A stretch of DNA of 64,000 bases. Source: Gemmatimonadota bacterium (GTDB taxonomy: Bacteria; Gemmatimonadota; Gemmatimonadetes; Gemmatimonadales; GWC2-71-9). The stretch covers positions 26,014-90,013 of the forward strand of contig JBDHAN010000001.1 of assembly GCA_039588055.1 (NCBI GenBank), given 5' to 3'. Below are positions 3,898 to 57,482 of the stretch, in pieces. Under the pieces are notes generated by a model that was not told the origin of the DNA, did no database searches, and worked only from the letters and a program-made list of their open reading frames with translations. Positions within the stretch are counted from its first letter, which is position 1. Each line of letters opens with the position of its first letter. Both the position numbers and the translations under genes were made by a program.

Positions 3898-3946
3898 GTC
3901 TCTCTCCATTTCAGCTGGTGAATTTCGTTTCTCCAAGAGTTCGTGA

Positions 3947-10707: not shown

Positions 10708-10885
10708 AGTCTTGCTAAGTTCTTTTCCCTAGCTATTTTATCCCCCTGCCAGCCGAGCAGGGCGGACGGCGTCCGCCGTCCGGTTTGAGCGGTCTACAAC
10801 AGTACGCTTGACACGCGGTGGAGGCTAGAAGGCTGCCAGCCAGCGGCCATCGCCGGTATGGATTTTGCGCTCTTGGAGATACAGG

Positions 10886-18185: not shown

Positions 18186-18265
18186 TTGAAAAACAATCTG
18201 TTAGACCGTGAGCTCCGCGGGACGTTCTTGCGACAGCCCTGGGAACGCTCTATAGTCTCTCGCCT

Positions 18266-19105
18266 ATGCCAGCAAGACCTATCAGCAGTGCTACCGTCTC
18301 GTTCGGACTCGTGTCCGTCCCGATCAAGCTCTACTCGGCGGCCGAATCCCAGTCGAAGATCAGCTTCAACTGGCTGCACAGGGACTGCGGCTCGCGCCTT
18401 CGCCAACAGTACGTCTGCAAGAAGCACGGCGACATCGTCGAGAAGGACGACATGGTCAAGGGCTACGAGTTCGCCAAGGACCAGTACGTACTGTTTACGT
18501 CGGAGGAGCTCAAAGAGGTCGAAGCGAAAGCGACGGAGTCGATCGAGATCGTGGAATTTGTGCCGGCAGAGCAGGTCGATCGCCATTACCTCAGCAAGGT
18601 TTACTACCTCGGTCCCGACAAGGGTGGGGATCGGGCGTACAAGCTGCTGAGCCGCGCCATGCAAGAGACCAAGCTCTGCGCCCTCGCCAAGTATGCCGCC
18701 CGCGGCAAGCAATACCTCGTGCTCGTACGGCCCATGGGTGAGGGGCTGGCCATGGAGCAGCTGCATTACCCCGATGAGCTCCGCTCTTTCGATGAGGTGC
18801 CGCTGGGCGAGAGCGAGATCAAAGACGAAGAGCTGAAACTCGCCGTGGAGCTCATCAAGCAGGCCGCCTCCGAGGAGTTTCATCCCGAGAACTTCGAGGA
18901 CGAGGTCCGCAAGCGAACGCTTGAGCAGATCGAACGGAAGGTTGCCGGCGAAGACATCACGCTGGCTCCGACCGAGGAGCCCAAGACCCAGATCATCGAC
19001 CTGATGGAGGCGCTCAAGGCCAGCTTGGCGAAGGGTGAGCAGCGCGCCGCTGAGCAGCAGGCATCGAAGAAGGCCAAGGCGACACCCAAACGAAAAAAGG
19101 CATGA
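18266..19105 (+). CDS. ku: Ku DNA end-binding protein
   Basis: RPISSATVSFGLVSVPIKLYSA, KGYEF..DQYV and YYLGPDKGG are typical bacterial Ku. The C-terminal tail is Lys-rich (SKKAKATPKRKKA). The gene is divergent from ligD across an 80-bp spacer. Confidence 0.95.
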   Translation: MPARPISSATVSFGLVSVPIKLYSAAESQSKISFNWLHRDCGSRLRQQYVCKKHGDIVEKDDMVKGYEFAKDQYVLFTSEELKEVEAKATESIEIVEFVPAEQVDRHYLSKVYYLGPDKGGDRAYKLLSRAMQETKLCALAKYAARGKQYLVLVRPMGEGLAMEQLHYPDELRSFDEVPLGESEIKDEELKLAVELIKQAASEEFHPENFEDEVRKRTLEQIERKVAGEDITLAPTEEPKTQIIDLMEALKASLAKGEQRAAEQQASKKAKATPKRKKA

Positions 19106-19698: not shown

Positions 19699-21318
19699 GT
19701 GGCTGATATCAGGTTGGCGGCCGCGATGTCCACTCCGCAGGGGAGAGCGACAGCACCGCTCGTCTCCCTCCCCTCGGACGTCATCGAGCAGTCCTGCAAA
19801 CGTGTCGGCATTCTCGGGATCGTCTTTGCGCTATTCTGGGCCCTCGCGCTGTTCATGGGCAACGTGGTGCACGGCTTTATCGAACCGGCCGTTCGCATGA
19901 CCGAGTTTGCCTTTCCGATGCCTGGCAACGTGTTTGCCACCATCGGACTGGCCATGTCGCTCGGTATGGTCGTGCTCGCCGGCAGGCTGCAGGACCGCCC
20001 CAACCTGCTGCTGGACCTGAGCCTCGTCTTCATGGTGCTGACGGCCCTCTTGATCGGCATTCTCAATCAGTGGATCCCGAACTTCGAGGGTAGAGGTATC
20101 TCCTGGATCTGTGTCGTCATTCTCGTGTACCCTGCGATTGCGCCGAATACGCCGGGAAAGATCTTACTGGCCGGCGTTCTCGCCGCCTCCATGGATCCGT
20201 TCGGTCTTCTTGTGACAGAGCTGCGCGGGGTGGAGTACGACGCGCCGCGCTCCGCCCTCGGCTTCAAGTTCCTGGCGAACTATTTGTGCGCCCTGCTGGC
20301 CGTCGTGCCAGCCAAGATGATCCGCGTGCTAGGACGGCACGCCCGGCGGGCACGCGACTTAGGGAGCTACCGGCTGGGCGATGAGCTGGGACGCGGCGGC
20401 ATGGGAACCGTGCACCGGGCCGAGCATCGTCTGCTGGCGCGACAGGCGGCCATCAAACTCATTCGGCCGGAGCTGCTTGGCGCCCGAGATCCGGACACGG
20501 CACGCATCATGGTCGAGCGGTTCAAGCGCGAGGCTCAAGCCTCGGCCTCACTCCGCTCGCCACACACCATCGAGTTGTACGACTTCGGCGCCACCGAAGA
20601 CGGCGCGTTCTACTACGTGATGGAGCTGCTCGACGGCATGAGCCTGGATGAGCTCATCGAGCGCAACGGCCCGGTTCCCGCGGAGCGGGCCATCGCGATC
20701 ATCCGACAGGTGTGCCTATCGCTCGCCGAGGCGCACGCCCGCGGTCTCATTCATCGGGACGTCAAGCCGTCGAACATCTTCTTAACGCGTATGGGCTTGC
20801 AGGTCGACTTCGTGAAGGTGCTCGACTTTGGGCTCGTCAAGGCACAGGAGAGCCGCGAACAGACACTGCTCACCCAGCAAGGAATGACCACAGGCACACC
20901 GGCTTACATGGCACCGGAAATGGCGATGGGAGAAAGCGACATCGACAGCCGGGTCGATGTCTACGCGGTCGGATGCGTGTTGTACTATCTCCTCACCGGA
21001 CAACTCGTGTTCGAAGCCGACACGCCAATGAAGATGATGCACCGCCACATCAGCGACGCGCCGGCGCCCCCGTCCCACCGAACCGAGCTCCCGATTCCGG
21101 CTGAGCTCGAGCAACTCGTCATGGATTGTCTCGCCAAAGTGCCCGACGGCCGTCCGGCGAGCGGCGCCGCGGTTGCACAGCGACTCACCGTCATTCCGGT
21201 TCGTGAGCCATGGACCGATGAGCGTGCCCACCGTTGGTGGCACACCAACCGTCCAGAGACACTGGAAGAGTGCGCTTGTGACCAGGGCGTGCTCTGCCCG
21301 GCCATGGTGACAGCGTGA
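19699..21318 (+). CDS. Ser/Thr protein kinase with an N-terminal polytopic membrane domain
   Basis: The N-terminal ~215 aa is multi-TM. The Hanks kinase domain follows (GRGGMGTVHRA...AIK, HRDVKPSNIF, DFG, GTPAYMAPE). Confidence 0.85.
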   Translation: MADIRLAAAMSTPQGRATAPLVSLPSDVIEQSCKRVGILGIVFALFWALALFMGNVVHGFIEPAVRMTEFAFPMPGNVFATIGLAMSLGMVVLAGRLQDRPNLLLDLSLVFMVLTALLIGILNQWIPNFEGRGISWICVVILVYPAIAPNTPGKILLAGVLAASMDPFGLLVTELRGVEYDAPRSALGFKFLANYLCALLAVVPAKMIRVLGRHARRARDLGSYRLGDELGRGGMGTVHRAEHRLLARQAAIKLIRPELLGARDPDTARIMVERFKREAQASASLRSPHTIELYDFGATEDGAFYYVMELLDGMSLDELIERNGPVPAERAIAIIRQVCLSLAEAHARGLIHRDVKPSNIFLTRMGLQVDFVKVLDFGLVKAQESREQTLLTQQGMTTGTPAYMAPEMAMGESDIDSRVDVYAVGCVLYYLLTGQLVFEADTPMKMMHRHISDAPAPPSHRTELPIPAELEQLVMDCLAKVPDGRPASGAAVAQRLTVIPVREPWTDERAHRWWHTNRPETLEECACDQGVLCPAMVTA

Positions 21319-21329
21319 CCAAAGCCTCT

Positions 21330-22928
21330 CTACGACTTGACCGTTGGAGGCTCGCCGTCGCGCACTTGTGGCGCCGGCACCAACTCTGGCAAATTCGTCC
21401 GCCACCACCGCTCCGCCAGCTCTGCCGTCCAGGGATCACCGACATCACAGGAGGCCAGCAACCGACCGAGCGTCATCGCGTCGGCTGGTCGGCGCTCGCG
21501 GTCCTTCTCGATGCAGGTGAGCAGGAGCTCGTCCAACTCACGAGTGACCGGAAGCTCGGAGTGATACGACGCAGGCAGCGGCGTGTTCCGAATGTGCGAC
21601 ATCATCATCTTCATGGGCGTCTCCGCCTCGAAGACCAGGCGGCCCGTAAGCAGCCAATACGCGACACACCCGAGCGCATAGATGTCGCTCCGACCGTCGA
21701 TCTCTTCACCCCGGGCCAGCTCTGGTGACATGAAGGCCGGGGTGCCCGTGGCCATGTTCGGCGCGGTGAGCTTGGCCTGCTCCGTCTCGCTCGCGAGCCG
21801 CCCTTTGACCAGGCCGAAATCGAGCACTTTGAGGAAGTCCGCTTCCAGTCCCACCCAGCAGGTGTAGAGGTTGGCCGGCTTCACGTCCCGGTGTACAAGC
21901 CCGATGGCGTGTGCTTCGGCCAGAGCGCGGCAAGCCTGTTGCAGCAGATACGTGGCACGTGCCGGCCGCATCGGACCGAAGCGCTCGATAAGCGTCTCGA
22001 GGTTGAGCCCCCGTAGGAGCTCCATCACGTAGTAAAAGTCGCCCGCGTCCGTGACACCGAAGTCGTAGAGTGCGATGGCATGTGGTGAATGCAGGCTCGA
22101 CGCGGCCTCGGCCTCCCGCTTGAACCGTCGTACGATGGTCGCGGGTGGTTCGGCCTCACCCGTGCTCAACATTGCCGGCCGAACCAACTTGACCGCCGCG
22201 GGACGGCGGAGCAGCCGGTGTGTCGCCGCATAGACCTCGCCCATTCCCCCGCGGCCTAACAAGTCGCCAAGCTGGTAACTACCGAGCTCGCGAGCGTGGC
22301 GAACCTGATTGCTCAGCCGTGTGATGACGTGGGACGGCAATACGGCGAGAACGGCACACAGGTAGTTGGGCAGAACCGCCCAGACCAACACCGGAACTGA
22401 CGGCAATTCGACACCGCGTGCCCCGGTTATCAGTAGCCCGACGGGATCCATGCTCGCGGCGACCAGCGCTGCGACGAGGGTGCGTCGCCTGGTACTGGGC
22501 ACGATGGCCGGAAACACCAGCACCAACACACAAATCCATGAGAGTCCAGTCGTGTTCGGTGTCCACTGATTCACAATGCCGATTGCGAGCGCAATCACAA
22601 CTTCGTACGCAAGCCCGAGGTCCAGCAGCCGTCGCGTTCCGGCAGCGGCGCTCCGGGTATAGCCATAGACCACGAACGAGGTGACGATCACGACAAGCGC
22701 CGCCGGGTTGCCCGGTACCGGCCACGCGTCGTCCAGCGGCGCCCCCGGCGAGAGAATGGGACTCACGAAGTTGTTCAGCGCGAGCTGCAGTAGCCAAAGC
22801 CCTGCTCCAACGAGGCACGCAACGCCCAGGCGCTTGGTGGCAATCTGAAGGAGATCGGCCGGAACTTCCTCGATTGCACCGAGAGGCCCGGTCCGCACGT
22901 TGACGTCTGGGAATTCCGCTGGGTCCAT
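21330..22928 (-). CDS. Ser/Thr protein kinase, paralog of 19699..21318 with the same architecture
   Basis: The membrane domain shares blocks with its neighbour (NQW.PN..G.SWICV.VLV.PAI.P, AASMDP.GLL.T..RGVE). Kinase motifs are GRGGMGEVYAA...AVK, HRDVKPANLY, DFG and GTPAFMSPE. Confidence 0.85.
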   Translation of the reverse strand: MDPAEFPDVNVRTGPLGAIEEVPADLLQIATKRLGVACLVGAGLWLLQLALNNFVSPILSPGAPLDDAWPVPGNPAALVVIVTSFVVYGYTRSAAAGTRRLLDLGLAYEVVIALAIGIVNQWTPNTTGLSWICVLVLVFPAIVPSTRRRTLVAALVAASMDPVGLLITGARGVELPSVPVLVWAVLPNYLCAVLAVLPSHVITRLSNQVRHARELGSYQLGDLLGRGGMGEVYAATHRLLRRPAAVKLVRPAMLSTGEAEPPATIVRRFKREAEAASSLHSPHAIALYDFGVTDAGDFYYVMELLRGLNLETLIERFGPMRPARATYLLQQACRALAEAHAIGLVHRDVKPANLYTCWVGLEADFLKVLDFGLVKGRLASETEQAKLTAPNMATGTPAFMSPELARGEEIDGRSDIYALGCVAYWLLTGRLVFEAETPMKMMMSHIRNTPLPASYHSELPVTRELDELLLTCIEKDRERRPADAMTLGRLLASCDVGDPWTAELAERWWRTNLPELVPAPQVRDGEPPTVKS

Positions 22929-24549: not shown

Positions 24550-25995
24550 ATGACGACGGAACCACAGCGAGGTCCGTTCGATCGCTTCCTGCGGCTCTTC
24601 ACCGACATCCGGACGGGCGAGTCGACGACGGCGCTCCTCCTCATGCTCAACATCTTCCTGATCTTCGTGGCGTATTCGATCATGAAGGTGCTGCGAGAGG
24701 TGCTGGTTCTCAGCCAGGCAGAGGTCGAGGGTAAGGCCCTATCGGCGGGCGGGCAGGCACTCGTCCTGCTGGCAGCCGTTCCGCTTTACGGCATGATCGC
24801 CTCACGCGTGCCGCGTCGCCGCCTGATCAATGTCGTTACCGTCTTCTTCGTGGCCTGCCTCGGGGTGTTCTATGCCCTCTACACGCTAGAGATACCGATC
24901 GGCATTGCATTCTTCATCTGGCTTGGGGTCTTCAACGTGATGGTGATTGCCCAGTTCTGGGCGTTCGCCAACGACGTCTATACCACCGACGAAGGCAAGC
25001 GCCTGTTTCCCATCGTCGGCTTTGGATCAGCTTCGGGGGCTGTGGTCGGAGCGTGGGCCACTGGTGTGCTGCAAAGCGCGGTTGGCATCGGGTTTGCCTT
25101 GCTCATCGCTGCCGGCCTCCTCCTTCTCGGAGTGGCCGTCACCAACATGGTCGACAGCAGGGAGCGACGTCGCACCGAAGCGCATCTCCCGGACATCCAC
25201 ACGACAGGCACGATGCCTGCCGCCACCGGGCAATTCCGAGCAGCGACCGGCGAGTTTCGCGTGCCGGATGCGGAGTACCAAAAAGAAAGCGGGACGTTCC
25301 AGGCGATTACGTCAGAAGAATCGATGGCAGACGAGCCCCCGAAGTCGACGGGCGGCGCATTCCAACTCGTGTTCCGCAATCGCTACCTGCTGTTGATGGC
25401 GCTGCTGGTGTTGCTGCTCAATTGGGTCAACACGAGCGGAGAGCTGATACTCTCTGCATTCGTGACAGACGCGGCCGACCGTGCGGTGGCGAGCGGACAG
25501 GCAACGCAGGAAGAGATCATCGGGCGCTTCTATTCCGGGTTCCAGGGAACCGTGAACCTCGTCGGGATGCTGGTCCAACTCTTTCTCGTGTCGCGGATCA
25601 TCAAGTACTTGAACATCCCTGCAGCACTCTTGATCTTGCCCGTCGTATCCTTTGCCGCATACTCGCTGATTCTCTTCGTTCCCCTGCTGGCAGCGGTCCG
25701 GTGGGCGAAGACCGGCGAAAACGCTACCGACTATTCGCTGAACAACACGGTGCGACACGCACTGTTCTTGCCCACGACACGAGAGGAGAAATACAAGGCG
25801 AAGCAGGTGGTCGACTCGTTCTCACAGCGGGTCGGCGACGTGCTGGCAGCGCTGACGTGGTTGGGTGGAACAGCGCTCCTGGGTTTCGCCTATACACAGC
25901 TGGCCGCGGTCAACCTCGTGCTCGTGGGGGTCTGGATCGTCATAGCGGTGCTGATCGGGAGACGCTACAAGCGGGTGGCCGCCGTAGCTGCTTGA
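24550..25995 (+). CDS. TLC/NTT-like (Npt1/Npt2 family) putative nucleotide transporter
   Basis: About 12 TM helices. The N-terminal pattern (ALLLMLNIFLIFVAYSIMKVLREVLVL) and FWAFANDVYT are typical of ATP/ADP-translocase-like MFS proteins. A ~90-aa hydrophilic central loop carries three (A/S)TGxF(R/Q) heptads. Confidence 0.65.
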   Translation: MTTEPQRGPFDRFLRLFTDIRTGESTTALLLMLNIFLIFVAYSIMKVLREVLVLSQAEVEGKALSAGGQALVLLAAVPLYGMIASRVPRRRLINVVTVFFVACLGVFYALYTLEIPIGIAFFIWLGVFNVMVIAQFWAFANDVYTTDEGKRLFPIVGFGSASGAVVGAWATGVLQSAVGIGFALLIAAGLLLLGVAVTNMVDSRERRRTEAHLPDIHTTGTMPAATGQFRAATGEFRVPDAEYQKESGTFQAITSEESMADEPPKSTGGAFQLVFRNRYLLLMALLVLLLNWVNTSGELILSAFVTDAADRAVASGQATQEEIIGRFYSGFQGTVNLVGMLVQLFLVSRIIKYLNIPAALLILPVVSFAAYSLILFVPLLAAVRWAKTGENATDYSLNNTVRHALFLPTTREEKYKAKQVVDSFSQRVGDVLAALTWLGGTALLGFAYTQLAAVNLVLVGVWIVIAVLIGRRYKRVAAVAA

Positions 25996-26018: not shown

Positions 26019-28265
26019 CTACTTGTCGCCTTGTGAATCACGCAATTTGCGTAGCTGCTCGAGGTTGAGCGCAATCGACTGATTCGACTGCATGAGGTCG
26101 TCGAGGACTTCCTCGGCCGAGCGACGGGCTGCCGGCTTGACGGCTGGGACCTCCAAGAACGGCCACAACTGCGAGCGAATCCGTTCGGGCAGGGCCGTCT
26201 CCAGATACTCTAGTGCTGTGCCGCGCAGCAGCCGGTCGTTCGTGTGAAGACCGCGGAACGCCACCTTGAGCGGCTGGGGCGGCAACACGAGCGCCAAGAT
26301 GGTGAACACGTGTTCGAGAGCCCGATTCGCCCGCTCCCGCAACACTTCGTCCACTACAGGTGACCACTCGTCATCCTCCATGCGGTCCAGCAGGCGGTGG
26401 CTTTCCCACACGCCTCGATCGACCTTGACCTCCCGAAGGACCACCTCGTACGCGCGCTCCCGACCGACCTGGAGCTCGGGATTGAGGGTCATGAGCCGGC
26501 TGAGCGCGCGGCCACAGCGGTAGCGTACCTCGAAACGCGAATCCTCGAGCCCGCGGAGCAGCCCGTCGACGGCACGATCGGACGGGCACGACGCAAGCAC
26601 CATCGGGAGGCGTCGCCGCACCGCGAACTCCTCGTCTCGATCGAGCAAGCGGTCGACCAGCTGGCCGGTCACGCGCGGAGCGACCTCGCGGAGGGCGAGG
26701 ATCGCCTCATGAAGCACTTCATCCCATGCCAGGAGCGGGACGACGTGAGGCACATGAGTGGCTCTGAGCGGCCCCTCCCGCAGCGCCTCGCGAACGCGCG
26801 TGGCATTCCGCGTACGGAGAGCCGCAATGCGCTGTACCTCTGGGTCGAGCGGCGCATGGGGTTGTGACGGCGCGGCTCCTTGTGCAGGCTCCGCGTCCTT
26901 AGGAGTTGATTCGATATGCTCGACACTGGGTCGAACCCGAGTCAGACCCAACGTCGCCGCACTCTGGAGCACGGCCGTGCGTGTCACGGCGTCCTGAACC
27001 TCGTCCAAATCGAGCTCGACGGCGCGTGACAACAGACTTCGCTCCAGCGTTCGCACATACCCGGCGCGGAGCTGCAGCGCAACGACGACCGCAGCGACCG
27101 ACAACACGATCGCGATGACCAGCAGCGAGCGAGTCGCAACGCCAACGGCTAGTAGCAACATCACCTGCACGATCCCACCGCCAACAACGTCGCCGAGTCG
27201 GACCGCGCCGACATCGATGAGGGCCTTTGCCGCTCGTTTCCGCCGCGCAGCAACCGGCGTGAACAGCAGCTCATATCCGGCGCGGTACAGCCCATTTCGC
27301 AGAACTGACTCGGCACCACGCGCAGCCATGGCACTGGCCAATCCCGGCACCACTAGGGCACCCAGACTCCCGATCGCAGCCCCGGCCGGCAGTAGCGCCA
27401 CGGTCCGCGTGAGGCCGAGGTTCTGGAGAGCTTGCCGGCTGGCTGCTGCCTGGACGACGACGGTGAGGAAAGCAACTCCCGTGTAGAACAGGGCGAACAA
27501 CCGCAGCAACTCCTCGCCTCCGCCATACTCTTGGGTCGCCCTGGCTTTGAACACGTAGTCAATGAGCACTTCACTGACCGTCGCCAGTAGCACCAGGGCC
27601 ACAAGCCCCCGGAGGTACGGCGTGGCGGCAATGATCTTGAGGCCGGAGCGTTCGGCCGACTCCATGTCCGCGAGTGCTGCACCGGCCGTGGTCGTCTCAC
27701 CGCGGTGCCGCACGGCGAGCACCAGCACGGCGCAGCACACGTGCAGTGCCGCCAGGATCGGAAGCATAGTCACCACCGAGAGGTAGGCACCGACGCGCTC
27801 GGCGAGCAGACCGCCGACCAGCCCGCCAACCGTACCGCCCGCGGCAATGCGACCGATGTACCTCTTGGCCGTCCGCGGATCGAACCGCTCATTGACAACC
27901 GACCAGAACCCCGAGATCAGGATCGCCCCGAGGGCGCCATAGTGCAGATAGACGACGATGGCGGCGGCCTGCGGCATCCGGACTGCAAACGCCGATTCGA
28001 TGATGAGCAGCAGCGCGCTGGCGGCGAACGCCGACGGGACCAGTCGCCCCGGCCCCAGCCGGGTCATCCACCGCGAGGCCGCGAGCGCGGCCACGAGGGA
28101 GATGATGGCTGACGTGACGACCATTCGGGGCAGCTTGTCGACGTCAAAGCTCGAGAGAAACAGCGCGTCCCGCGTGGCCTTGCCGCCGACCTGGAAGGCG
28201 ATCATCAACGTGGCAACTGCCACCGCCGCTACGTATGCGCGCTGCTGATCTTGCTCCTCGGCCAC
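26019..28265 (-). CDS. TLC/NTT-like transporter domain fused to a C-terminal HEAT-repeat-like domain
   Basis: The N-terminal ~420 aa is polytopic (GKATRDALFLSSF, FWSVVNERFD). The C-terminal ~320 aa is all-helical with repeated LL..L.D....VR motifs consistent with HEAT/ARM repeats. Confidence 0.6.
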   Translation of the reverse strand: MAEEQDQQRAYVAAVAVATLMIAFQVGGKATRDALFLSSFDVDKLPRMVVTSAIISLVAALAASRWMTRLGPGRLVPSAFAASALLLIIESAFAVRMPQAAAIVVYLHYGALGAILISGFWSVVNERFDPRTAKRYIGRIAAGGTVGGLVGGLLAERVGAYLSVVTMLPILAALHVCCAVLVLAVRHRGETTTAGAALADMESAERSGLKIIAATPYLRGLVALVLLATVSEVLIDYVFKARATQEYGGGEELLRLFALFYTGVAFLTVVVQAAASRQALQNLGLTRTVALLPAGAAIGSLGALVVPGLASAMAARGAESVLRNGLYRAGYELLFTPVAARRKRAAKALIDVGAVRLGDVVGGGIVQVMLLLAVGVATRSLLVIAIVLSVAAVVVALQLRAGYVRTLERSLLSRAVELDLDEVQDAVTRTAVLQSAATLGLTRVRPSVEHIESTPKDAEPAQGAAPSQPHAPLDPEVQRIAALRTRNATRVREALREGPLRATHVPHVVPLLAWDEVLHEAILALREVAPRVTGQLVDRLLDRDEEFAVRRRLPMVLASCPSDRAVDGLLRGLEDSRFEVRYRCGRALSRLMTLNPELQVGRERAYEVVLREVKVDRGVWESHRLLDRMEDDEWSPVVDEVLRERANRALEHVFTILALVLPPQPLKVAFRGLHTNDRLLRGTALEYLETALPERIRSQLWPFLEVPAVKPAARRSAEEVLDDLMQSNQSIALNLEQLRKLRDSQGDK

Positions 28266-28410
28266 CGTTTCTCCTCAGATGAGGCTCGTGTGCCCCTAAA
28301 CTAGTGAATCCTGCCTCCACCGCGACCTCGACCCGTGGACTGGTCAAGACGACGCTTCGACATCACTTTGAAAGATCGTGACGATCGGGACTTCTTCGGG
28401 GGGGCACGAC

Positions 28411-29052
28411 GTGCGACGGCACCAGAGAGCACTGTTGACGGGACTCTTCGGAATCCTGTGGCTGGGTTGCACAGAGGATCGGCCTGACGACGCCAGTGCG
28501 GCCGATACAACCGCGGCGCCCGCTGAGATCGATCCCACACCAGGCGTGGTTTTAGAGACCAACCTCGGACGCATCGTGCTGGAGCTGGACCGTGAGACTG
28601 CCCCCCGCAGTGTCGAGAACTTCCTTCGCCACGTCGAGATCGGGTTCTACGACTCGCTCATCTTCCACCGCGTACGACCGGGGTTCATGGTGCAGGCGGG
28701 CACGTATACACCTGAGCTGGCACGCCGCCGCTCTTCGGCTCCTCCCATCCGGAACGAGAGCGATAATGGCGTGAGAAATCTCCGCGGCACGATCGCCATG
28801 GCCCGGCAGCCCGATCCGCACAGTGCGACCACACAGTTCTTCATCAACCTGGTCGACAACGCCGGCCTCGATTATCGCGACACGCGCGAGATCCCCTGGG
28901 GCTACGCGGTGTTCGGCAACGTGACCGACGGGATGGCCGTCGTCGACTCGATCGCCAAGGTTCCCACCCAGCGACGCGGATCGAACGAAGCGGTCCCGCT
29001 GGAACCCATCGTGATCACCCGGGCGTTCCTGCTGGAGGAGCCGACCACCTAG
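28411..29052 (+). CDS. Cyclophilin-type peptidyl-prolyl cis-trans isomerase (lipoprotein/exported)
   Basis: FHRVRPGFMVQAG, GTIAMAR and TQFFINL are cyclophilin motifs. The GTG at 28411 gives the signal VRRHQRALLTGLFGILWLGC. The track ORF starts at GTG 28378. Confidence 0.85.
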   Translation: MRRHQRALLTGLFGILWLGCTEDRPDDASAADTTAAPAEIDPTPGVVLETNLGRIVLELDRETAPRSVENFLRHVEIGFYDSLIFHRVRPGFMVQAGTYTPELARRRSSAPPIRNESDNGVRNLRGTIAMARQPDPHSATTQFFINLVDNAGLDYRDTREIPWGYAVFGNVTDGMAVVDSIAKVPTQRRGSNEAVPLEPIVITRAFLLEEPTT

Positions 29053-29108: not shown

Positions 29109-32100
29109 ATGACCCAGCCCAACGGTCGCACGCAGTGGGAGAAGGGCATCTGTGGTATCTGCCCGGCCGGGTGCTGGGTGGAGGTGGGTCTGGATGACGG
29201 CAGGCTGGTCGACATACGCCCCGATTCGGGCCACCCCCTCGGCATGATCTGCCGTCGGGGCCAGCATGCCCCGGAGATCGTCTATTCGAAGCATCGGATT
29301 CCACATCCCCTCAAGCGTGTTGGTCCGAAAGGGACTCACGATTTCGAGCGCATCACGTGGGACGAGGCGTATGACATCATCGTCGACCGGCTCTCAACGA
29401 TTCGCTCGGAATCCGGGCCCGAGGCGGTAGCAGTCTACACGGGCCGTGGGGCGTTCGAGCTGTCCCTGTGCGACATGTTTCAGCCAGAAGGCGTTGCCGT
29501 GTCCTCTGCGTCGAACGTGCTGTTCCCGTTCGGCTCCCCCAACACCATGGGGGTCGGCGCGTTGTGCTACGTGTCATTCGCTATGATCGCGCCGCACGTC
29601 ACGATGGGCCGCATGCTCGTCAACATGTTCTCAGACATGGAATCGGCCGAATCGCTGGTGGTGTGGGGCGCAAACCCGGCGACCGACTCGCCCCCGCTCG
29701 ACATGGCACGCCTCGAAGCCGCGGCCTCTCGCGGCGCAGACATCATCGTCATCGATCCGCGGCGCACCGAGACCGTCACCCGCACAGGAGCCGAGTGGGT
29801 GCCGATTCGGCCCGGCACCGATGGCGCGCTCGCATTGAGCATGATCGAGGTCTTGATCGAAGAGGATTTGTACGACGAGGATTTCACTGACCAGTGGTGC
29901 CACGGGTTCGACGAACTGCGGCAGTACGTGCAGCATTTCACGCCGGAGGTTGCGGAAACCATCACCGGCATACCCGCCGACACGATCCGGGATCTCGCCC
30001 GTCGTATCGGCCGCGCCACGGGCGCGTGCCCGGTCATGTACACGGGCCTCGAATACTCCAATAGCGGCATTCAGGCCATCCGAGCCGTCCACATCCTGTT
30101 CGCCCTGGCCGGTCACCTCGATGTGCCTGGCGGCATCGGGCTCGCGATGCGCGGCTCACATTTCCCGATCAACCGATCGTGTAACCAGTCGAACCCCGAT
30201 CTCGCGCGCGCGGTGGCCAGAGACAAGTATCCCGTGTACTCGGAGTACCGCGGTGAGTCGCACGCGAGCGGATTAGTCTCGTCCGTGCTGCACGGAGATC
30301 CCTATCCCATTCGCGGCCTGATCATTCACGGGGCTTCACTGCTCACGTCGTGGCCCGAGACTTCGATCTGGCGCGAGACGTTGGCCAAGCTGGACTTCGT
30401 GGTCTCCATCGATCGGCAGCTCACCGCGGATGCCGCCTATGCAGACGTCGTGCTGCCTGCCACGACGATGTTCGAGATCGATTCGTACATGGTCTACGGT
30501 CCGATCTTCCGGCTACGCGAGAAGGTGGTCGAACCTTTCGGTGAGGCGCGAAACGACTACCTCATCATGGCCGAGCTCGCCGCCAGGCTGGGGTACGGCG
30601 ACCTATATCCCCAGACGGAAGAGGGGCTCGTCCGGTTTGCGCTCGAGGGCTCTGGATATTCGCTCGAGGAGGTGCGCGACGCCGGCGGATCGGTCAAACT
30701 GCCCTCCCCCATCATGGAGTACAGGAAGTGGGAGAAAGGTGGGCTGCGCGAGGACGGTACGCCCGGTTTCGAGACACCAACCGGGAAGTTCGAGATCTGG
30801 TCGACCGTGCTCGAAGACTATGGCCACGAGGCGCTGCCAAAATACACTGAGCCAGTCGAAGGGCCGCAGGCTCGACCCGATTTGGTGAGCGAGTTCCCTC
30901 TCGTGTTCAATTCCGGTGCCCGCCCGCACACCGACTTTCGCTCACAGCATCATGGCATCGAGGGGCTGAACCGCGACAACCCCGAACCCGCGGTAGAACT
31001 CAGTAGACATGACGCAGAAGCCCGTGGCATCGACGACGGCGATCTCGTGGAAGTCAAAACACCGCGTGGCGCTGTTCCCTTCCGGGCACGAGTCACCGAC
31101 GACATCGTGCCCGGCGCAATCGAGTGCAACATGGGCGGCGGCACACCGGTCGGTCCCACCGCGTGGAACGAGTGGAACGTCAACGAGCTTACGGACTTGA
31201 GCAACGCCGATGAGATCTCGGGATTCCCGGTCTACAAGGCGTTGCTGTGCGAGGTGGTCAAAGTCGCGAGCGGCGACGGTCGGGCCACAACGTGCGATCG
31301 AGGTGCCAGTTGTGGGCCCGTCTTGCTCGACAACGTGCAGCAGCGGCAGCAGCCCAAGCGCCGCATCTATCTTGACAACAACGCCACATCACAGGTCGCG
31401 GACGCCGTCCGAGAGGCAATGCTCCCCTACCTGGGCGACGCACTCGGCAACCCCTCGAGTATTCACAGTACAGGACGCGACGCCCGCTCAGCGATCGACA
31501 CCGCGCGCCGACAGGTCGCTCGCCTCATCAACGCACGCCCCCGGCGCATCATCTTTACGGCGGGCGGCTCCGAAGCCGACAATCTGGCACTCAAAGGCAT
31601 CGCGTTCGCGCGCCGCGAACACGGCAACCACATCGTGACAAGCGCCATCGAGCACCCGGCGGTGCTCGAGGCGTGTCGCTTTCTCGCGACGATCGGCTAC
31701 GACGTGACCTACCTCCCCGTCGACCGTCTCGGCATAGTCACACCGAGCGCGCTTCGCGAGGCTCTCACCGACCGTACCATCGTGGTCTCGATCATGATGG
31801 CCAACAATGAGGTCGGGACGGTGCAGCCGATCAGGGACCTCTGCGCCATCGCGCATGAGCACGACGTGCCGTTCCATACCGATGCGGTGCAGGCAGCGGG
31901 CAAGATCCCAATCAGTGTCGAGGAGCTCGGCGTCGACCTCCTGAGCCTCTCGGGTCACAAGTTCCACGGGCCCAAAGGCGTCGGTGTCCTGTACGCAAAG
32001 AAGGGCATCGAGTTGGCGCCCCTCATCCACGGTGGGAAGCAGGAGGCAGGCGTGCGCGCCGGGACCGAAAACGTCCCGGCGATCGTGGGAATCGGCAAAG

Positions 32101-32516
32101 CTGCCGAGCTAGCTCTCGAGGCGTCGACCGACAGTTCACCGGTAGCACGACTGCGCGACCGGCTCGAGCAGGAAGTCCTTCGGCTCATCCCGGGGGCGAC
32201 GATCAATGGAAGCGTCAAGCATCGGCTGCCCAACACGTCCAACCTCACGCTGCCCGGTTTGCGGGGGGAATCACTCGTGGTCGCGCTCGACCAGCATGGA
32301 ATTGCACTGTCCTCAGGCTCGGCGTGCAAGTCCGGGTCGCCCGACCCCACGCACGTGCTCATCGCCATGGGGCTCCCACCCGAGCAGGTGCACTGCTCGA
32401 TTCGGCTCTCCCTGTCGCGCGACACGACCGAGGAAGACGTCGAGGATACCGTTGCGGCCCTCGAGCGGGTGTTGGAGGAACTCGAGACGACGGTGCGGTT
32501 CCTGCCCTGCAAATAG
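29109..32516 (+). CDS. Fusion protein: molybdopterin (Mo/W-bisPGD) oxidoreductase N-terminal ~740 aa plus NifS/IscS-type cysteine desulfurase C-terminal ~385 aa
   Basis: N-terminal 4Fe-4S motif CGICPAGCW...ICRRG, MopB-type blocks (VVWGANPA, VIDPRRTET, RPGTDGAL) and a C-terminal molydopterin dinucleotide-binding barrel (GDLVEVKTPRGAVPFRARVTD). After a ~40-aa linker come YLDNNATS, GGSEADN, SGHKFHGPKGVG (PLP lysine) and SSGSACKSG (catalytic Cys). It is one uninterrupted frame. Confidence 0.85.
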   Translation: MTQPNGRTQWEKGICGICPAGCWVEVGLDDGRLVDIRPDSGHPLGMICRRGQHAPEIVYSKHRIPHPLKRVGPKGTHDFERITWDEAYDIIVDRLSTIRSESGPEAVAVYTGRGAFELSLCDMFQPEGVAVSSASNVLFPFGSPNTMGVGALCYVSFAMIAPHVTMGRMLVNMFSDMESAESLVVWGANPATDSPPLDMARLEAAASRGADIIVIDPRRTETVTRTGAEWVPIRPGTDGALALSMIEVLIEEDLYDEDFTDQWCHGFDELRQYVQHFTPEVAETITGIPADTIRDLARRIGRATGACPVMYTGLEYSNSGIQAIRAVHILFALAGHLDVPGGIGLAMRGSHFPINRSCNQSNPDLARAVARDKYPVYSEYRGESHASGLVSSVLHGDPYPIRGLIIHGASLLTSWPETSIWRETLAKLDFVVSIDRQLTADAAYADVVLPATTMFEIDSYMVYGPIFRLREKVVEPFGEARNDYLIMAELAARLGYGDLYPQTEEGLVRFALEGSGYSLEEVRDAGGSVKLPSPIMEYRKWEKGGLREDGTPGFETPTGKFEIWSTVLEDYGHEALPKYTEPVEGPQARPDLVSEFPLVFNSGARPHTDFRSQHHGIEGLNRDNPEPAVELSRHDAEARGIDDGDLVEVKTPRGAVPFRARVTDDIVPGAIECNMGGGTPVGPTAWNEWNVNELTDLSNADEISGFPVYKALLCEVVKVASGDGRATTCDRGASCGPVLLDNVQQRQQPKRRIYLDNNATSQVADAVREAMLPYLGDALGNPSSIHSTGRDARSAIDTARRQVARLINARPRRIIFTAGGSEADNLALKGIAFARREHGNHIVTSAIEHPAVLEACRFLATIGYDVTYLPVDRLGIVTPSALREALTDRTIVVSIMMANNEVGTVQPIRDLCAIAHEHDVPFHTDAVQAAGKIPISVEELGVDLLSLSGHKFHGPKGVGVLYAKKGIELAPLIHGGKQEAGVRAGTENVPAIVGIGKAAELALEASTDSSPVARLRDRLEQEVLRLIPGATINGSVKHRLPNTSNLTLPGLRGESLVVALDQHGIALSSGSACKSGSPDPTHVLIAMGLPPEQVHCSIRLSLSRDTTEEDVEDTVAALERVLEELETTVRFLPCK

Positions 32517-32537: not shown

Positions 32538-32984
32538 TCAGAACAATTTGAGATAGTAGCTGAGTGCCGACGTCTCACGCTGCATCCGCCAGCCGGTGAC
32601 ACTGGAGTACCGCATGCGAAAGCACCGGGTGGTCTTCCCATCGGGTGGAGCACCGCCGTCAACCGAAATCTCAACACGCACCGCGAGATCGTCGGGTGTG
32701 CCTCGCGCAGTCATCGAGACAAAATCAATCCGGCTCCGGGCAATGATCTCCTGCGCCTGCTCCGATGCCGCCTGCGCGTTGCCGCTCGCCACGGCCTCCT
32801 CCAACGCCGGCAGTCCTTCGCGCTGGTACTCGGCGGCGAGCCAGAACCGGAGCTCGTCAGCTCCGGCCGACTGCAGCGTGGTTCGTGCCCCGACATAACG
32901 ATATCCGGCAATCGCGACCACCACCGCGAGAACGGCGATGGCCTTCCAGCCAGTCAGCCGGACCTTGATGCTACGCTCCCCCAC
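32538..32984 (-). CDS. Hypothetical membrane-anchored protein
   Basis: 148 aa with a single N-terminal TM helix (WKAIAVLAVVVAIAGY). No recognisable domain. It lies 9 nt downstream of the previous gene on the same strand. Confidence 0.45.
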   Translation of the reverse strand: MGERSIKVRLTGWKAIAVLAVVVAIAGYRYVGARTTLQSAGADELRFWLAAEYQREGLPALEEAVASGNAQAASEQAQEIIARSRIDFVSMTARGTPDDLAVRVEISVDGGAPPDGKTTRCFRMRYSSVTGWRMQRETSALSYYLKLF

Positions 32985-32993
32985 TGCCCTCCA

Positions 32994-34076
32994 TCACACT
33001 TGCCGACATTGCCGTAGAATCTCTCGTTCGGTCTTTCGTGAGTCGTTGATGATCTCGTAAAACTCATCGAAATATTCGAGGGTCCGTTCGAGGCGGCGCT
33101 CCTCCAACCCGTCCTGCCTGCGCCAGATGTCGTAGATCGCCTCTCGGCGCTCGTTGAAGAGATTGAAGGGCGGCACAAACTCCTCAGGCGGTCGGCAGAT
33201 ACCCCAGTACCGTCGGTCCCGCACGCGACGGACGCCGACCAGCGGATCCGGTTTAGCATACGGTGCGGAGATCACGCCCGACCAGTCGAAGTCGTACGGT
33301 ATCGGAACCACCGGTCCGATCATCGTGCCAATGAGCTTGGCGTTGTGACAGCAGCTCTCGCCAGGGACGGCTTGGAAGGCACTCCAGTCCGTATTGCCGA
33401 TGAGGAACTGAAACACCTCGAACAGGAGCAGGCTGGGGGGATCCTGCTGGTCCGGGGGGACAATCGGCACCTCGAGCACTTCCCAGCCATGCCTCGCGGC
33501 CAGCATGTCGAATGGCTCGAGGATGAACATGTACTTGGTCAGCGAATCACGTTTGTCGTCGGTATCGATGTAGGTCGTACGTGCGAGCCGCACGCGGACA
33601 CTCCGATCGGACAGTTGATTGAACGTGCGGTAAATCAGATACTCCTGCAACGTGAACTGCTCGTATTCGTCCTTTTTGTCCTGACAGTGGGCGACGATCG
33701 AGATCCGATTCTGACCGGCAAACACCGTATTCTCGACCTGCCGCCGACGGAAGTTGACGTGGAGATTCGGGAAGCCACACGTCCGCTTCTGCAGCCGGAA
33801 CTTGCCACGGGTTCTTGCCCGCATGTCGAGCACCACGGAATCGCCGCTCTCGTCGACGTAGGAAACCGTGCCAGGATGGTATGTGCTTTCTTGCTCCCGG
33901 TCCTTGAAGATCGTGTTGAACGGCGCCTCGATCCGCAGCTCGAGCACGTCGTGTGACGCGAACAACGGAGCCGTTTCCGCCACTTCCCGGAGCGAGTCGA
34001 CCGCGGCATCGTCCTGAGCGTTGAGCCCAGAACCAGCCAGCAGCATGGCCGCAAACACGGAGAACAAGCGCTTCAT
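32994..34076 (-). CDS. Hypothetical secreted protein (possibly distantly CotH-like)
   Basis: Signal peptide MKRLFSVFAAMLLAGSGLNAQ. The motif order RARTRGKF...FPNLHVNF...LIGNTDWS...CCHNAKL...PYDFDWSG is reminiscent of the CotH kinase fold, but this is only a tentative impression. Confidence 0.55.
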   Translation of the reverse strand: MKRLFSVFAAMLLAGSGLNAQDDAAVDSLREVAETAPLFASHDVLELRIEAPFNTIFKDREQESTYHPGTVSYVDESGDSVVLDMRARTRGKFRLQKRTCGFPNLHVNFRRRQVENTVFAGQNRISIVAHCQDKKDEYEQFTLQEYLIYRTFNQLSDRSVRVRLARTTYIDTDDKRDSLTKYMFILEPFDMLAARHGWEVLEVPIVPPDQQDPPSLLLFEVFQFLIGNTDWSAFQAVPGESCCHNAKLIGTMIGPVVPIPYDFDWSGVISAPYAKPDPLVGVRRVRDRRYWGICRPPEEFVPPFNLFNERREAIYDIWRRQDGLEERRLERTLEYFDEFYEIINDSRKTEREILRQCRQV

Positions 34077-40398: not shown

Positions 40399-41970
40399 TT
40401 ATCTCAGAAGCTCTTTCACTTCTCGGCGTCCGGCCAGTTCGGCGTCAATCTGCACGCCGATCTCACGCGCACGCTCTAAGTCGGCCGTGAGGTCGTCCAT
40501 CGTTGCCATTCCCGCCTGTACCTTGAGCAGCCCGAGCCGTACGTTCTCGAGCGCGGCCACGGTAGTGGCCAGCCGCTCTCCCGTATCGCCGCGGCGGCGC
40601 AACGCCTCGGCGTCGTGCTCCAGCTGCCGTATGACCTCGGGTACTTCCGGCATCCGCCGACGCATGTCACTGGGCAGATCCTGATACAAATCCGCTGCGG
40701 CGCGCCCAAGCACGATCTCGGTTGCATCGCTCGAGGGCAATACGCGATGCTTGGGCTTCTTGAGCCCAAACCCGACCGCGCGGAAGTATGTGCGGCCGAA
40801 CCAGCCGGCCCAGAGCCGGTTCCACAAGCCGTTAACCCGTCGCATGAACTTGCCCGACCCTGCCGCCTCTGCCTCTTCCTCCAGCGCCTGAGCCTCGGCC
40901 AGCAACGCCGCTCGGATGTCCTCGAAACTGTACCCCACATTGAGCAGGCGCCGCGCTCGGGCGACGAGTTGAATGAATAGCGCCAAAAGGATGAAGTTGA
41001 GGAGTCCCGAAAAATTTCCGGCTTCCTGCGAGACCATGGCCGCCGTGATAAACACGGCTGTCGTAACCTCGGCGTTGCGGAGGAAACCTCTGATGAGTGG
41101 AGGAGCTCTGAGCTCCCGGCCACGCATCTCACCGATTGCCTGCGCCAGCTCCTCGCCACTGGGGTAGCGAGCGTCGGGCATCTTCTCCAGACACTTGCCG
41201 ATGAGACCCGAGAGCTTTGCCGGGACCTCGCGGCGGAACTGGGTCACCGCCGGAGCTGGCTCGGCAACGTGCTTGGCCAACAGGGCCGGCACATTCGTCG
41301 CCTCGAATGGGGCGCGACCTGTGAGGGCAAAGAACGCCGTCGCGCCGAGGGAGTACAGATCGCTGCGCGCATCGGTCGGCTCGCCGGCGGCCTGCTCCGG
41401 ACTCATGTATCGCGCGGTCCCGACGACGTGACCCTGTTCCGCCGGCTCATCGACGTCCTCCACATGAGCGATGCCAAAGTCTGTCAGCAGCGCGCGGCCG
41501 GTCGCCTGATCAAACATGATGTTTTCGGGCTTGATATCGCGATGCACGATGCCGCGCTGATGCGCGTACGACAGCCCCCATGAGATCTCCTGCACGAGCC
41601 GCATCGTTTCACGGGGTGACAGCGGTCCGGCGCGGATCACCCGGTCCCGTAGGGTCTCGCCGTCGACATAGCCCATCACAAAGAAGACCAACGTGCCGTG
41701 TTCCTCGACAGAATGGATCGGGACGACATTCGGATGGGACAGCCCGGCCGACGTCCGGGCCTCGCGGAGAAACCGTTCCCGGCGCTCGGGATCTTCCGCC
41801 AACTGCAGAGGGAGCAGTTTCATTGCCACTAAACGATCGAGCGCCACGTCGCGGGCGAGGAGCACGATGCCCATGCCACCTCGCCCCAACTCACGCTCGA
41901 GCGAATAGCGGCCTTTCACGGCGTCCTGCAGGGTCAAGAACTCGGGGCTCAGCATCTCAGCCATGGCCAT
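40399..41970 (-). CDS. Ser/Thr protein kinase with a C-terminal TM hairpin and coiled-coil region
   Basis: GRGGMGIVLLA...AMK, HRDIKPENIMF, DFGIA and GTARYMSPE, followed by two TM segments and a ~190-aa helical tail. I prefer the ATG start at 41970; the track ORF begins at GTG 42009. Confidence 0.85.
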   Translation of the reverse strand: MAMAEMLSPEFLTLQDAVKGRYSLERELGRGGMGIVLLARDVALDRLVAMKLLPLQLAEDPERRERFLREARTSAGLSHPNVVPIHSVEEHGTLVFFVMGYVDGETLRDRVIRAGPLSPRETMRLVQEISWGLSYAHQRGIVHRDIKPENIMFDQATGRALLTDFGIAHVEDVDEPAEQGHVVGTARYMSPEQAAGEPTDARSDLYSLGATAFFALTGRAPFEATNVPALLAKHVAEPAPAVTQFRREVPAKLSGLIGKCLEKMPDARYPSGEELAQAIGEMRGRELRAPPLIRGFLRNAEVTTAVFITAAMVSQEAGNFSGLLNFILLALFIQLVARARRLLNVGYSFEDIRAALLAEAQALEEEAEAAGSGKFMRRVNGLWNRLWAGWFGRTYFRAVGFGLKKPKHRVLPSSDATEIVLGRAAADLYQDLPSDMRRRMPEVPEVIRQLEHDAEALRRRGDTGERLATTVAALENVRLGLLKVQAGMATMDDLTADLERAREIGVQIDAELAGRREVKELLR

Positions 41971-42183
41971 ATCTGCGTTGGGGCGATCATCCACCACACG
42001 ACAAATCACGATTCGCGCGACAACAACTGCTCATGCGGCGTCGCCCGTAAGCTACGTGTCCCCCGACCGCACGACCAGCCATGCACACATGACCGTCTGC
42101 CCACCACGCTTGACCGTCCACCGGCCCTCGGGCATTATCCGCAACGGCCTTTTGGCGGCATGCGCCGCAAGGAGCGCAGCAGG

Positions 42184-42690
42184 GTGATTCAGAAGAAGAT
42201 CTGCATGGTCGGCGTATATGGGACTGGGAAGACGAGCCTCGTCCAGCAATTCGTCCACGCCAAATTCTCCGAGCGCTATCACTCGACCGTCGGTGTGAAG
42301 ATCGACCGCAAGCCGGTGACGGTGGACGGGACCGACGTGAATCTCCTGCTCTGGGACTTAGAGGGTCGCGACGGTGTGCAAGACATCCAGACGAGCTACC
42401 TGCGGGGGGCATCCGGGATCATCTACGTTGCCGACGGAACGAGACTCGAGACGTTCGAGCAGATCCTCGAGCTTCGTGTCGTGGCCAAGAAGGCCATTGG
42501 CGATGTGCCGTCCGTGTGCGCGGTCAACAAGGTCGATCTCACCGAGGAGTGGAAGATCTCCGATGCGCAGATCGAAGGACTGGACGCCCCGACATGGCAC
42601 TCGCTCAAGACCAGCGCAAAGACGGGTGCGGGGGTGGAAGAGGCGTTCCACTGGCTCGCGGCCACAATGATCGGAGGCGCCGAGGCATGA
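42184..42690 (+). CDS. Ras-superfamily small GTPase (Rab/Ras-like)
   Basis: G1 GVYGTGKTS, G2 T in YHSTVG, G3 WDLEGRD (DxxG, with Arg replacing the catalytic Gln), G4 NKVD, G5 TSAK. GTG 42184 has AAGGAG 9 nt upstream. An alternative ATG is at 42160. Confidence 0.8.
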   Translation: MIQKKICMVGVYGTGKTSLVQQFVHAKFSERYHSTVGVKIDRKPVTVDGTDVNLLLWDLEGRDGVQDIQTSYLRGASGIIYVADGTRLETFEQILELRVVAKKAIGDVPSVCAVNKVDLTEEWKISDAQIEGLDAPTWHSLKTSAKTGAGVEEAFHWLAATMIGGAEA

Positions 42691-43571
42691 CCGAGCCGGA
42701 CTTGGATCAAACCCAACCACTTGACGCCGTACCGGAGCCGCCGGTGCGCATCGATGCCTATGGCATCACTGACACGGGCAAGGTTCGACAGCAAAACGAA
42801 GATCAATTCGCCGTCGGCCGCATGACGAGGTCACTCGAGCTCACACATACGAGCCTCGGCACTGTTTCGTCACTCGACCGCCTTGGCAAAACCGCGGCAG
42901 ACATTTACATCGTGGCGGATGGCGTGGGAGGAGTGGCTGGTGGCCAGTTAGCGAGCGGGATCGCTGTGGAGGCCCTGACAGAGTACCTCGCGCAGACGGC
43001 GGGATGCTTCTATCACACGGACATTGCTTTGGAGCACGAGCTCCTCGAGCGCCTGGAACAGGCGGCGCAGCATGCGCACGAGAGGGTCCGGGCTTTTTCG
43101 CCGAAGGGCCAGGGCCCGGCAACAACGCTCACCATGGTGACACTCCTCTGGCCACGCGCATACATCGTGCACATCGGAGACAGCCGGGGATACTACCTGC
43201 GCGGTGAGCGTCTTCGGCAGTTCACCAGAGATCAGACGATGGGCGAGTTGCTGGTGGACGAAGGAGTGGTCACGGAGCAGCAGGCCCGAGATTCCGGACT
43301 GGACAATGTGCTCGCCAGTGCGGTGGGTGCTGACATCAATCCCTCGATTGGCCTGCTGGACCTGCAGTACGATGACACAGTGCTGCTATGCTCCGACGGA
43401 CTCACCAAACACGTCTCGGACGAAGAGATCTCTGCGTTTCTGCAGGAAGGACAGGACGCCGCATCCACGTGCCGCCGGTTGGTTGACGCAGCGCTCGAGG
43501 GTGGCGGAACTGACAACATCACGGTCGTTGTCGCCCGTATGGGACGGCCGGCGAGTCCCTCCAGCGACTGA
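42687..43571 (+). CDS. PP2C-family Ser/Thr protein phosphatase
   Basis: The ATG overlaps the GTPase stop (ATGA). Motifs: TDTGKVRQQNEDQF, VADGVGG, HIGDSRGY, LLCSDGL, GGTDNITVVV. Confidence 0.9.
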   Translation: MTEPDLDQTQPLDAVPEPPVRIDAYGITDTGKVRQQNEDQFAVGRMTRSLELTHTSLGTVSSLDRLGKTAADIYIVADGVGGVAGGQLASGIAVEALTEYLAQTAGCFYHTDIALEHELLERLEQAAQHAHERVRAFSPKGQGPATTLTMVTLLWPRAYIVHIGDSRGYYLRGERLRQFTRDQTMGELLVDEGVVTEQQARDSGLDNVLASAVGADINPSIGLLDLQYDDTVLLCSDGLTKHVSDEEISAFLQEGQDAASTCRRLVDAALEGGGTDNITVVVARMGRPASPSSD

Positions 43572-57398: not shown

Positions 57399-57482
57399 GG
57401 TTTCCCCTCTGCAGTTGCTGTCCAAGGGTCTAACGCACCGAGAACGAAGATTCTATGAAGATCGGATGAACGACGACTTCAT

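Follow-up and report, generated by a model that had tools for sequence, protein, structure and literature searches.

A probable metallopterin-dependent ergothioneine synthase ortholog, encoded as a single-chain MopB–NifS fusion on a Gemmatimonadota-type chromosome

Metallopterin-dependent ergothioneine synthase (MES), described from Caldithrix abyssi (Beliaeva & Seebeck, JACS Au 2022, PMC9516567), is composed of modules that together transfer the sulfur of cysteine to N-alpha-trimethylhistidine (hercynine), with ergothioneine as the product. Four members of the family, designated CaMES (A0A7V4WV16), hvMES (A0A3B1C0R1), EaMES, and AbMES, all yielded ergothioneine in E. coli, which takes up hercynine readily (PMC9516567). 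Here, we analyze a gene for an 1135-amino acid protein that probably belongs to this family and that lies in a 64-kb stretch of Gemmatimonadota DNA; the term window refers to this whole stretch.

Mutational studies of CaMES provide the framework for our comparison. Ergothioneine production was nearly abolished by the K952A, C1074S, C1135S, and C153S mutations, the loss of activity amounting to ~2000-fold for C1135S, and was halved by C1097S (PMC9516567). Co-expression of the K952A and C153S variants failed to restore production, which indicates that sulfur must be passed along inside a single polypeptide (PMC9516567). The desulfurase-dead K952A variant continues to exchange 34S between ergothioneine and hercynine; thus, its metallopterin site is active and the desulfurase serves turnover rather than maturation (PMC9516567). 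Re-sulfuration of the enzyme recurs in each catalytic cycle, and the sulfur ends in the product (PMC9516567). The discovery of MES began from genomes that encode EgtD, and Table S1 already contains three homologs from Gemmatimonadetes (PMC9516567). MES was said to occur in anaerobes only (PMC9516567).

ORF calling and translation revealed that the window gene is one unbroken ATG-to-TAG open reading frame (ORF) of 1135 codons plus stop at 29109..32516 (+). A first-pass annotation, made from the sequence alone, had proposed that this frame is uninterrupted and joins a complete MopB-type half carrying a C-x2-C-x3-C...C motif to a complete class-V pyridoxal phosphate (PLP) enzyme; a Pfam scan bears this out, with the domains of the N-terminal half spanning residues 9–711. 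The Fe4S4-binding domain (PF04879 Molybdop_Fe4S4, E 1.3e-07; residues 9–60; 29133..29288 (+)) contains the cysteines of the motif, Cys15, Cys18, Cys22, and Cys48, whose codons on the plus strand begin at 29151, 29160, 29172, and 29250, respectively. It is followed by the catalytic core that binds bis-molybdopterin guanine dinucleotide (bis-MGD) (PF00384 Molybdopterin, E 9.7e-39; residues 63–492; 29295..30584 (+)). Within this core, the predicted molybdenum or tungsten (Mo/W) ligand Cys153 (29565..29567 (+)) lies in the invariant motif GALCYVSFAMIAPHV. The molybdopterin dinucleotide-binding beta-barrel (PF01568 Molydop_binding, E 8.5e-21; residues 604–711; 30918..31241 (+)) completes the N-terminal half.

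A linker of ~40 residues, variable in sequence and length, fills the gap between the Pfam domains (residues 712–752; 31242..31364 (+)); the linker placed earlier at 31255..31365 (residues 716–753) coincides with this gap and with the sole poorly conserved, length-variable segment of the family alignment. The class-V PLP cysteine desulfurase module (PF00266 Aminotran_5, E 1.4e-82; residues 753–1112; 31365..32444 (+)) contains the PLP lysine, Lys951 (31959..31961 (+)), in an SGHKF motif at residues 948–952, the persulfide cysteine, Cys1073 (32325..32327 (+)), in an SSGSACKSG motif that starts at residue 1068, and a further conserved cysteine, Cys1096 (32394..32396 (+)). The C-terminal tail (residues 1113–1135; 32445..32513 (+)) ends in VRFLPCK, the family tail motif, and its penultimate residue, Cys1134 (32508..32510 (+)), is the proposed relay of persulfide to the metal site. 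The order PF04879, PF00384, PF01568, and PF00266 within one 1135-amino acid chain reproduces the three-part architecture of the four validated MES proteins, the chain being 1135 residues long vs 1136 in MES. No RR motif of a twin-arginine (Tat) signal was seen upon inspection of the translated N-terminus, MTQPNGRTQWEKGIC, and the Pfam scan found no MOSC domain in the protein.

Over its full length (~1125 residues) the window protein is 66% identical to hvMES, 57% to CaMES, 56% to EaMES, and 54% to AbMES in BLASTP alignments; these values are minimum estimates, since optical character recognition errors affect the reference sequences, which were taken from the supplement of the paper. In a neighbor-joining tree, the window protein groups with Gemmatimonadota sequences inside a large clade that contains hvMES; the second main branch holds CaMES, EaMES, and AbMES. 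Validated enzymes consequently flank the deepest split of the tree.

The residues on which the CaMES model depends are found at corresponding positions, with numbering that agrees to within 1. Cys15, Cys18, Cys22, and Cys48 correspond to CaMES Cys14, Cys17, Cys21, and Cys48, while Cys153, Lys951, Cys1073, Cys1096, and Cys1134 correspond to CaMES Cys153, Lys952, Cys1074, Cys1097, and Cys1135. When 33 full-length genomic copies of the family are aligned, the four cluster cysteines together with Cys153, Lys951, and Cys1073 are invariant (33/33), as are Cys1096 and Cys1134 in all 32 homologs that reach those positions. The tail motif VRF[LIV][PSA]C[KR]-COOH is kept in each of the 32 homologs that extend to the C-terminus, and the VRFLPCK version of the window protein is identical to the hvMES type. 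In our comparison, then, the protein shares with MES its architecture, its orthologous relationship, the tail, and every functional residue: the iron-sulfur (FeS), metal-ligand, PLP, persulfide, and relay positions.

Based on these sequence comparisons, we consider the gene to be probably an MES ortholog on a Gemmatimonadota-type chromosome (probability about 0.85). Ergothioneine synthesis by the window protein itself would follow by analogy, with activity, residue roles, and sulfur transfer in cis taken from the published work on the family. The first-pass annotation had regarded the architecture as uncharacterized and the substrate as unknown. Both statements are superseded: the architecture is already known and not new, since the 2022 study identified it, expressed and mutated the protein, and gave it the name MES, so that a refutation the annotation had itself foreseen, an already characterized architecture, is what we found, and the substrate of the family is hercynine (PMC9516567). 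Its proposal that the desulfurase sulfurates the Mo center of its own chain agrees with the failure of CaMES K952A and C153S to complement each other (PMC9516567).

The published CaMES model (PMC9516567) can be mapped onto the window protein as follows. PLP bound to Lys951 would desulfurate L-cysteine to alanine and load a persulfide on Cys1073. The sulfane sulfur would then be relayed within the same chain by the penultimate Cys1134, carried on the flexible C-terminal tail, to the Mo/W-bis-MGD center held by its protein ligand Cys153, which would generate Mo(VI)=S. Attack of the imidazole C2 of hercynine on the sulfido ligand would allow ergothioneine to depart, and the resulting Mo(IV) would be re-sulfurated for the next cycle. 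The net reaction would be insertion of S(0) into a C-H bond and would presumably be redox-neutral. Such a reaction would explain both a cytoplasmic protein that has no Tat signal and the absence of an electron-transfer partner; indeed, a Pfam scan of the neighboring ORFs identified no FeS, cytochrome, or membrane subunit genes near the MES gene, as had been noticed in the initial reading of the sequence. An alternative idea in that reading, that the N-terminal domain reduces or oxidizes a sulfur or selenium species supplied by the desulfurase, gives way to the C-S bond formation catalyzed by MES (PMC9516567); for a part played by selenium, our analysis yielded no support.

Several observations weigh against the assignment. 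Purified full-length MES has yet to be obtained, and the authors of the original study label its catalytic cycle tentative (PMC9516567); moreover, the copy of the PDB that we searched contains no MES structure. The remaining points concern EgtD, the histidine-specific methyltransferase (PF10017) expected as pathway partner. EgtD was not found in the 64-kb window: seven tblastn queries, of which six were MES-linked EgtDs and one was the M. smegmatis enzyme, returned noise only, and a Pfam scan of 46 ORFs was also negative. None of the syntenic Gemmatimonadota loci has an EgtD gene less than 10 kb away from MES, and no EgtD labeled as Gemmatimonadota appeared among the top 120 matches of two protein searches with MES-linked EgtDs, most of these matches being unnamed.

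We compared related loci (L001–L042 and L081–L085) by unbiased clustering of flanking ORFs, and a family of ~334 amino acids, identified by Pfam as EgtD, adjoins MES in 19–20 of ~38 of them. EgtD also lies directly downstream of MES in L083, where the MES protein shares 73% identity with that of the window; both observations speak for the assignment. Members without an adjacent EgtD in the flanks examined comprise the Gemmatimonadota, Calditrichia, Fidelibacterota, and Marinacidobacterales of the hvMES-type clade as well as some Chromatiales and Dehalococcoidia. Adjacency of EgtD to MES is an association and not a strict requirement. The window gene differs from the described MES genes in this respect, since neither an adjacent EgtD nor one in the rest of the 64 kb accompanies it and the co-encoding of the two genes is not seen there; it also differs in its Gemmatimonadota-type host, compared with Caldithrix, Methanoculleus, and Abyssubacteria. 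Discovery of the family through EgtD-encoding genomes, together with the Gemmatimonadetes entries in Table S1 (PMC9516567), suggests that EgtD is encoded elsewhere in Gemmatimonadota genomes. The window MES would obtain its hercynine through an EgtD encoded at another site of the genome or by uptake.

The same data can be read in another way, in which the MES chemistry is retained but the role differs: no EgtD would be encoded in the genome, and the enzyme would act on imported hercynine, on another imidazole or heterocycle, or with a selenocysteine donor to form selenoneine. The lack of EgtD in the window and in all syntenic Gemmatimonadota loci, as well as among the Gemmatimonadota-labeled top matches of both protein searches, is in keeping with this idea. 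NifS-like enzymes can work as selenocysteine lyases, and two such lyases in the PDB (3gzc and 3a9x) are distant matches to the desulfurase half. In addition, hercynine import is easy for E. coli, and the authors of the MES study suggest that other heterocycles may commonly undergo oxidative sulfurization (PMC9516567). However, hvMES belongs to the same clade, is sister to a locus with no adjacent EgtD (L008), and converts hercynine to ergothioneine; the surroundings of the metal ligand are nearly identical in EgtD-linked and EgtD-unlinked members; the route of discovery and the Gemmatimonadetes entries in Table S1 (PMC9516567) connect this lineage to EgtD-encoding genomes; and a shared pathway does not need gene adjacency. 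We therefore regard a different role as unlikely. It is likewise improbable, though worth stating, that EgtD-unlinked MES proteins are salvage enzymes for environmental hercynine, or sulfurate or selenate another heterocycle, should these genomes truly lack EgtD. If this were true, metallopterin-dependent C-S bond formation would not be confined to ergothioneine biosynthesis and might extend to lineages other than strict anaerobes.

Comparison with solved structures and curated families bears on whether the N-terminal half could be a conventional molybdoenzyme. The best match in a solved structure is the W-bis-MGD and Fe4S4 protein acetylene hydratase (2e7z, E 3.3e-66), a local alignment over the N-terminal module (residues 14–658), and the second best for this half is polysulfide/thiosulfate reductase (2vpw, E 1e-63). 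Acetylene hydratase resembles the window protein in having a Cys metal ligand and an N-terminal Fe4S4 cluster; it is cytoplasmic and needs no electron-transfer partner subunit. Its residue Asp13 is essential for hydration. In the alignment, CDINC of acetylene hydratase is paired with CPAGC of the window protein, such that Asp13 is matched by Pro19 beside the second cluster cysteine. Acetylene hydratase also differs in being a stand-alone protein of ~730 amino acids that has no fused desulfurase and performs C-O rather than C-S chemistry; with Pro19 in place of Asp13 and a desulfurase attached, the window protein was rejected as an acetylene hydratase. The two structural matches agree with those reported in the MES paper (PMC9516567).

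In an NCBIfam scan, the N-terminal half fell below threshold for the Fdh-alpha, PhsA, DmsA, and similar models. The score for Fdh-alpha (TIGR01591) was 298 bits vs a cut-off of 666, with residues 14–497 only being aligned, and the protein was not accepted as a formate dehydrogenase subunit. PhsA (NF012032) scored 265.9 bits vs 694. PsrA and PhsA share with the window protein a Mo-bis-MGD center that handles sulfane sulfur at the metal, but PsrA is Tat-exported and works with PsrB, PsrC, and quinol, whereas the window gene has neither an RR motif nor partner genes, its neighbors being cyclophilin, major facilitator superfamily (MFS) transporters, and hypothetical ORFs; an identity as PhsA or PsrA was likewise rejected. 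The C-terminal half scored 512.5 bits with the NifS model TIGR03402, 18 bits short of the cut-off of 530.75, and 379–383 bits with IscS models whose cut-offs are 548–643. Its best PDB matches, 9wep and 5wt2, and also 1p3w, are cysteine desulfurases. These scores, the fusion, and the MES-specific Cys tail set the protein apart from the stand-alone NifS/IscS equivalogs of ~380–400 amino acids.

These results also bear on the maturation model of the first-pass annotation, which had pointed to sulfur delivery by IscS via FdhD and to the eukaryotic Moco sulfurases. Here, the NifS domain would install a sulfido ligand once on a conventional redox molybdoenzyme, similar to formate dehydrogenase or to polysulfide/thiosulfate reductase, that acts on some other substrate. 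Delivery of a sulfido ligand by IscS and FdhD is established for formate dehydrogenases. The MES paper cites sulfuration of the E. coli formate dehydrogenase cofactor (PMC9516567), and the sub-threshold Fdh-alpha and PhsA matches and the PsrA structure (2vpw) count in favor of this reading. Scores so far under the curated cut-offs, the missing Tat signal, and the lack of nearby genes for partner subunits of the FeS, cytochrome, or membrane type argue against it, and the retention of 34S exchange by CaMES K952A, which assigns the desulfurase to turnover, largely refutes it (PMC9516567). We judge one-time maturation to be highly improbable. The likeness to the systems that pair NifS/IscS proteins with molybdenum cofactor sulfuration (IscS-FdhD, XdhC, and the eukaryotic ABA3/MOCOS) lies in the handing of persulfide sulfur to the molybdenum cofactor. 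Those systems sulfurate the cofactor a single time, prior to its insertion, and mostly act in trans. The MES sulfido ligand, by contrast, is renewed at every turnover in one polypeptide and the sulfur goes into the product (PMC9516567). ABA3 further differs in combining NifS and MOSC domains rather than MopB.

MES shares its hercynine substrate and end product with the O2-dependent non-heme iron sulfoxide synthases EgtB and Egt1 and the rhodanese-like EanB, which are normally paired with EgtD, but the folds and chemistry are unrelated. No homolog of EgtB (FGE-sulfatase/DinB) or EanB was identified next to the window MES gene.

The fusion of MopB and NifS modules is, on comparative sequence grounds, genuine and not an artefact. 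GC content is even across the module junction (0.62–0.66). A search of a database of 5.8 billion clustered proteins returned >100 full-length fusion proteins of 1129–1161 amino acids with 73–79% identity and the same domain set; they were drawn from independent NCBI, JGI, ENA, and Logan assemblies and carry the labels Gemmatimonadota, Calditrichaeota, Deferribacteres, Acidiferrobacterales, and Gammaproteobacteria. Among the JGI entries is one with 100% identity over the 85% of the query to which it aligns. In a collection with a single genome for each species, 597 stretches encode a relative of the query, and many of them match the desulfurase half only; ~40 of the best 80 loci among these stretches are full or near-full length and come from bacteria and methanogenic archaea. 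The reading frame continues unbroken across the junction in all 33 full-length genomic loci, which represent many phyla of bacteria and archaea. The linker, 35–54 amino acids long in these homologs, is the sole weakly conserved segment, the majority-residue frequency being 0.40 vs 0.73–0.80 in the domains. The possibility that a missed stop or frameshift in the linker joined separate MopB and nifS genes through an assembly or sequencing error is negligible and is ruled out by these data: its only support is that the least conserved segment is where an error would hide, and against it stand the >100 independent fusions from differing assemblies and pipelines, the 33/33 in-frame loci despite linkers that vary in sequence and length, and the functional need for fusion in CaMES (PMC9516567).

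The otherwise variable linker contains two cysteines, Cys729 (31293..31295) and Cys735 (31311..31313). A linker cysteine in a short C-G/E/A-P context, which reads ASCGPVLL in the window protein, recurs in ~10 hvMES-type members (including L001, L002, L008, L010, L014, L032, L036, and L042) and has no counterpart in the CaMES-type clade. This cysteine could offer an additional relay site for persulfide, or it could be meaningless.

Database names do not reflect the nature of these proteins. MES homologs are entered as "cysteine desulfurase NifS," "IscS subfamily cysteine desulfurase," or "aminotransferase class V-fold PLP-dependent enzyme," names that under-describe the protein, and the Pfam and NCBIfam copies that we searched hold no model covering the whole MES family. 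As a result, sequence scans keep re-flagging MES as novel. The window gene carries little weight as a discovery claim, since MES has been known since 2022 with Gemmatimonadetes homologs included in Table S1 (PMC9516567). The 597 related stretches, even with many limited to the desulfurase half, point to a family far larger and wider than the 27 entries considered from that table (PMC9516567). The missing adjacent EgtD across much of one large clade raises the small question of where the substrate comes from. A literature search for follow-up structural or mechanistic work on MES, or for Gemmatimonadota ergothioneine genes, yielded nothing beyond reviews citing the 2022 study.

The MES gene is preceded by genes encoding a cyclophilin (28378..29052 (+)) and, upstream of it, a 748-amino acid MFS protein with a C-terminal HEAT-repeat region (26019..28265 (-)) and another MFS protein (24550..25995 (+)). 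Both MFS proteins have weak similarity to TLC (ATP/ADP transporter) and are kept in all syntenic Gemmatimonadota contigs. That the pair imports or exports hercynine or ergothioneine is pure speculation. Convergent with MES are two hypothetical ORFs with no Pfam match, one of 148 amino acids directly downstream (32538..32984 (-)) and one of 360 amino acids (32994..34076 (-)), which are conserved in Gemmatimonadota loci L001, L002, L032, L042, and L084. Further neighbors encode NhaA, Ser/Thr kinases, an Rce1-like protein, TauE, and OPT. This gene order is common to contigs of Gemmatimonadota metagenome-assembled genomes over ~20 kb at ~71% nucleotide identity, and the neighbors were not found beside MES loci in other phyla; the order therefore reflects lineage and not function. 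A functional operon with the neighbors was ruled out, as their conservation is confined to closely related Gemmatimonadota contigs. The rest of the window has ordinary chromosomal content, including malic enzyme, K+ channels, TreT, LigD/Ku, a TonB-dependent receptor, a PAS-GGDEF-EAL protein, FeoB, and others.

The window also encodes a cytochrome P460-like ORF and a weak match to a cbb3-type cytochrome c domain (3376..3984 (-) and 56763..57425 (-)). A globin gene is present at the syntenic Gemmatimonadota locus L084 (22150..22644), and the window has none. The cytochrome and globin genes hint that MES hosts of the Gemmatimonadota lineage may not be strict anaerobes, contrary to the published description (PMC9516567).

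A TreT-type trehalose synthase (10865..12328 (+)) lies ~17 kb from MES. The unrelated locus L083 also has a TreT gene (17572..18810), ~4 kb from its MES-EgtD pair. The proximity of TreT and MES may be a coincidence or may represent a loose link among compatible-solute or stress genes. Three Ser/Thr kinases and a PP2C phosphatase (19699..21318 (+), 21330..22928 (-), 40399..42009 (-), and 42516..43571 (+)) are spread over ~24 kb around MES, and the kinase that adjoins NhaA is conserved in syntenic Gemmatimonadota contigs. Finally, an 850-amino acid LigD with phosphoesterase, ligase, and primase-polymerase domains (15633..18185 (-)) is divergent from Ku (18266..19105 (+)), and the two form a bacterial non-homologous end-joining module.

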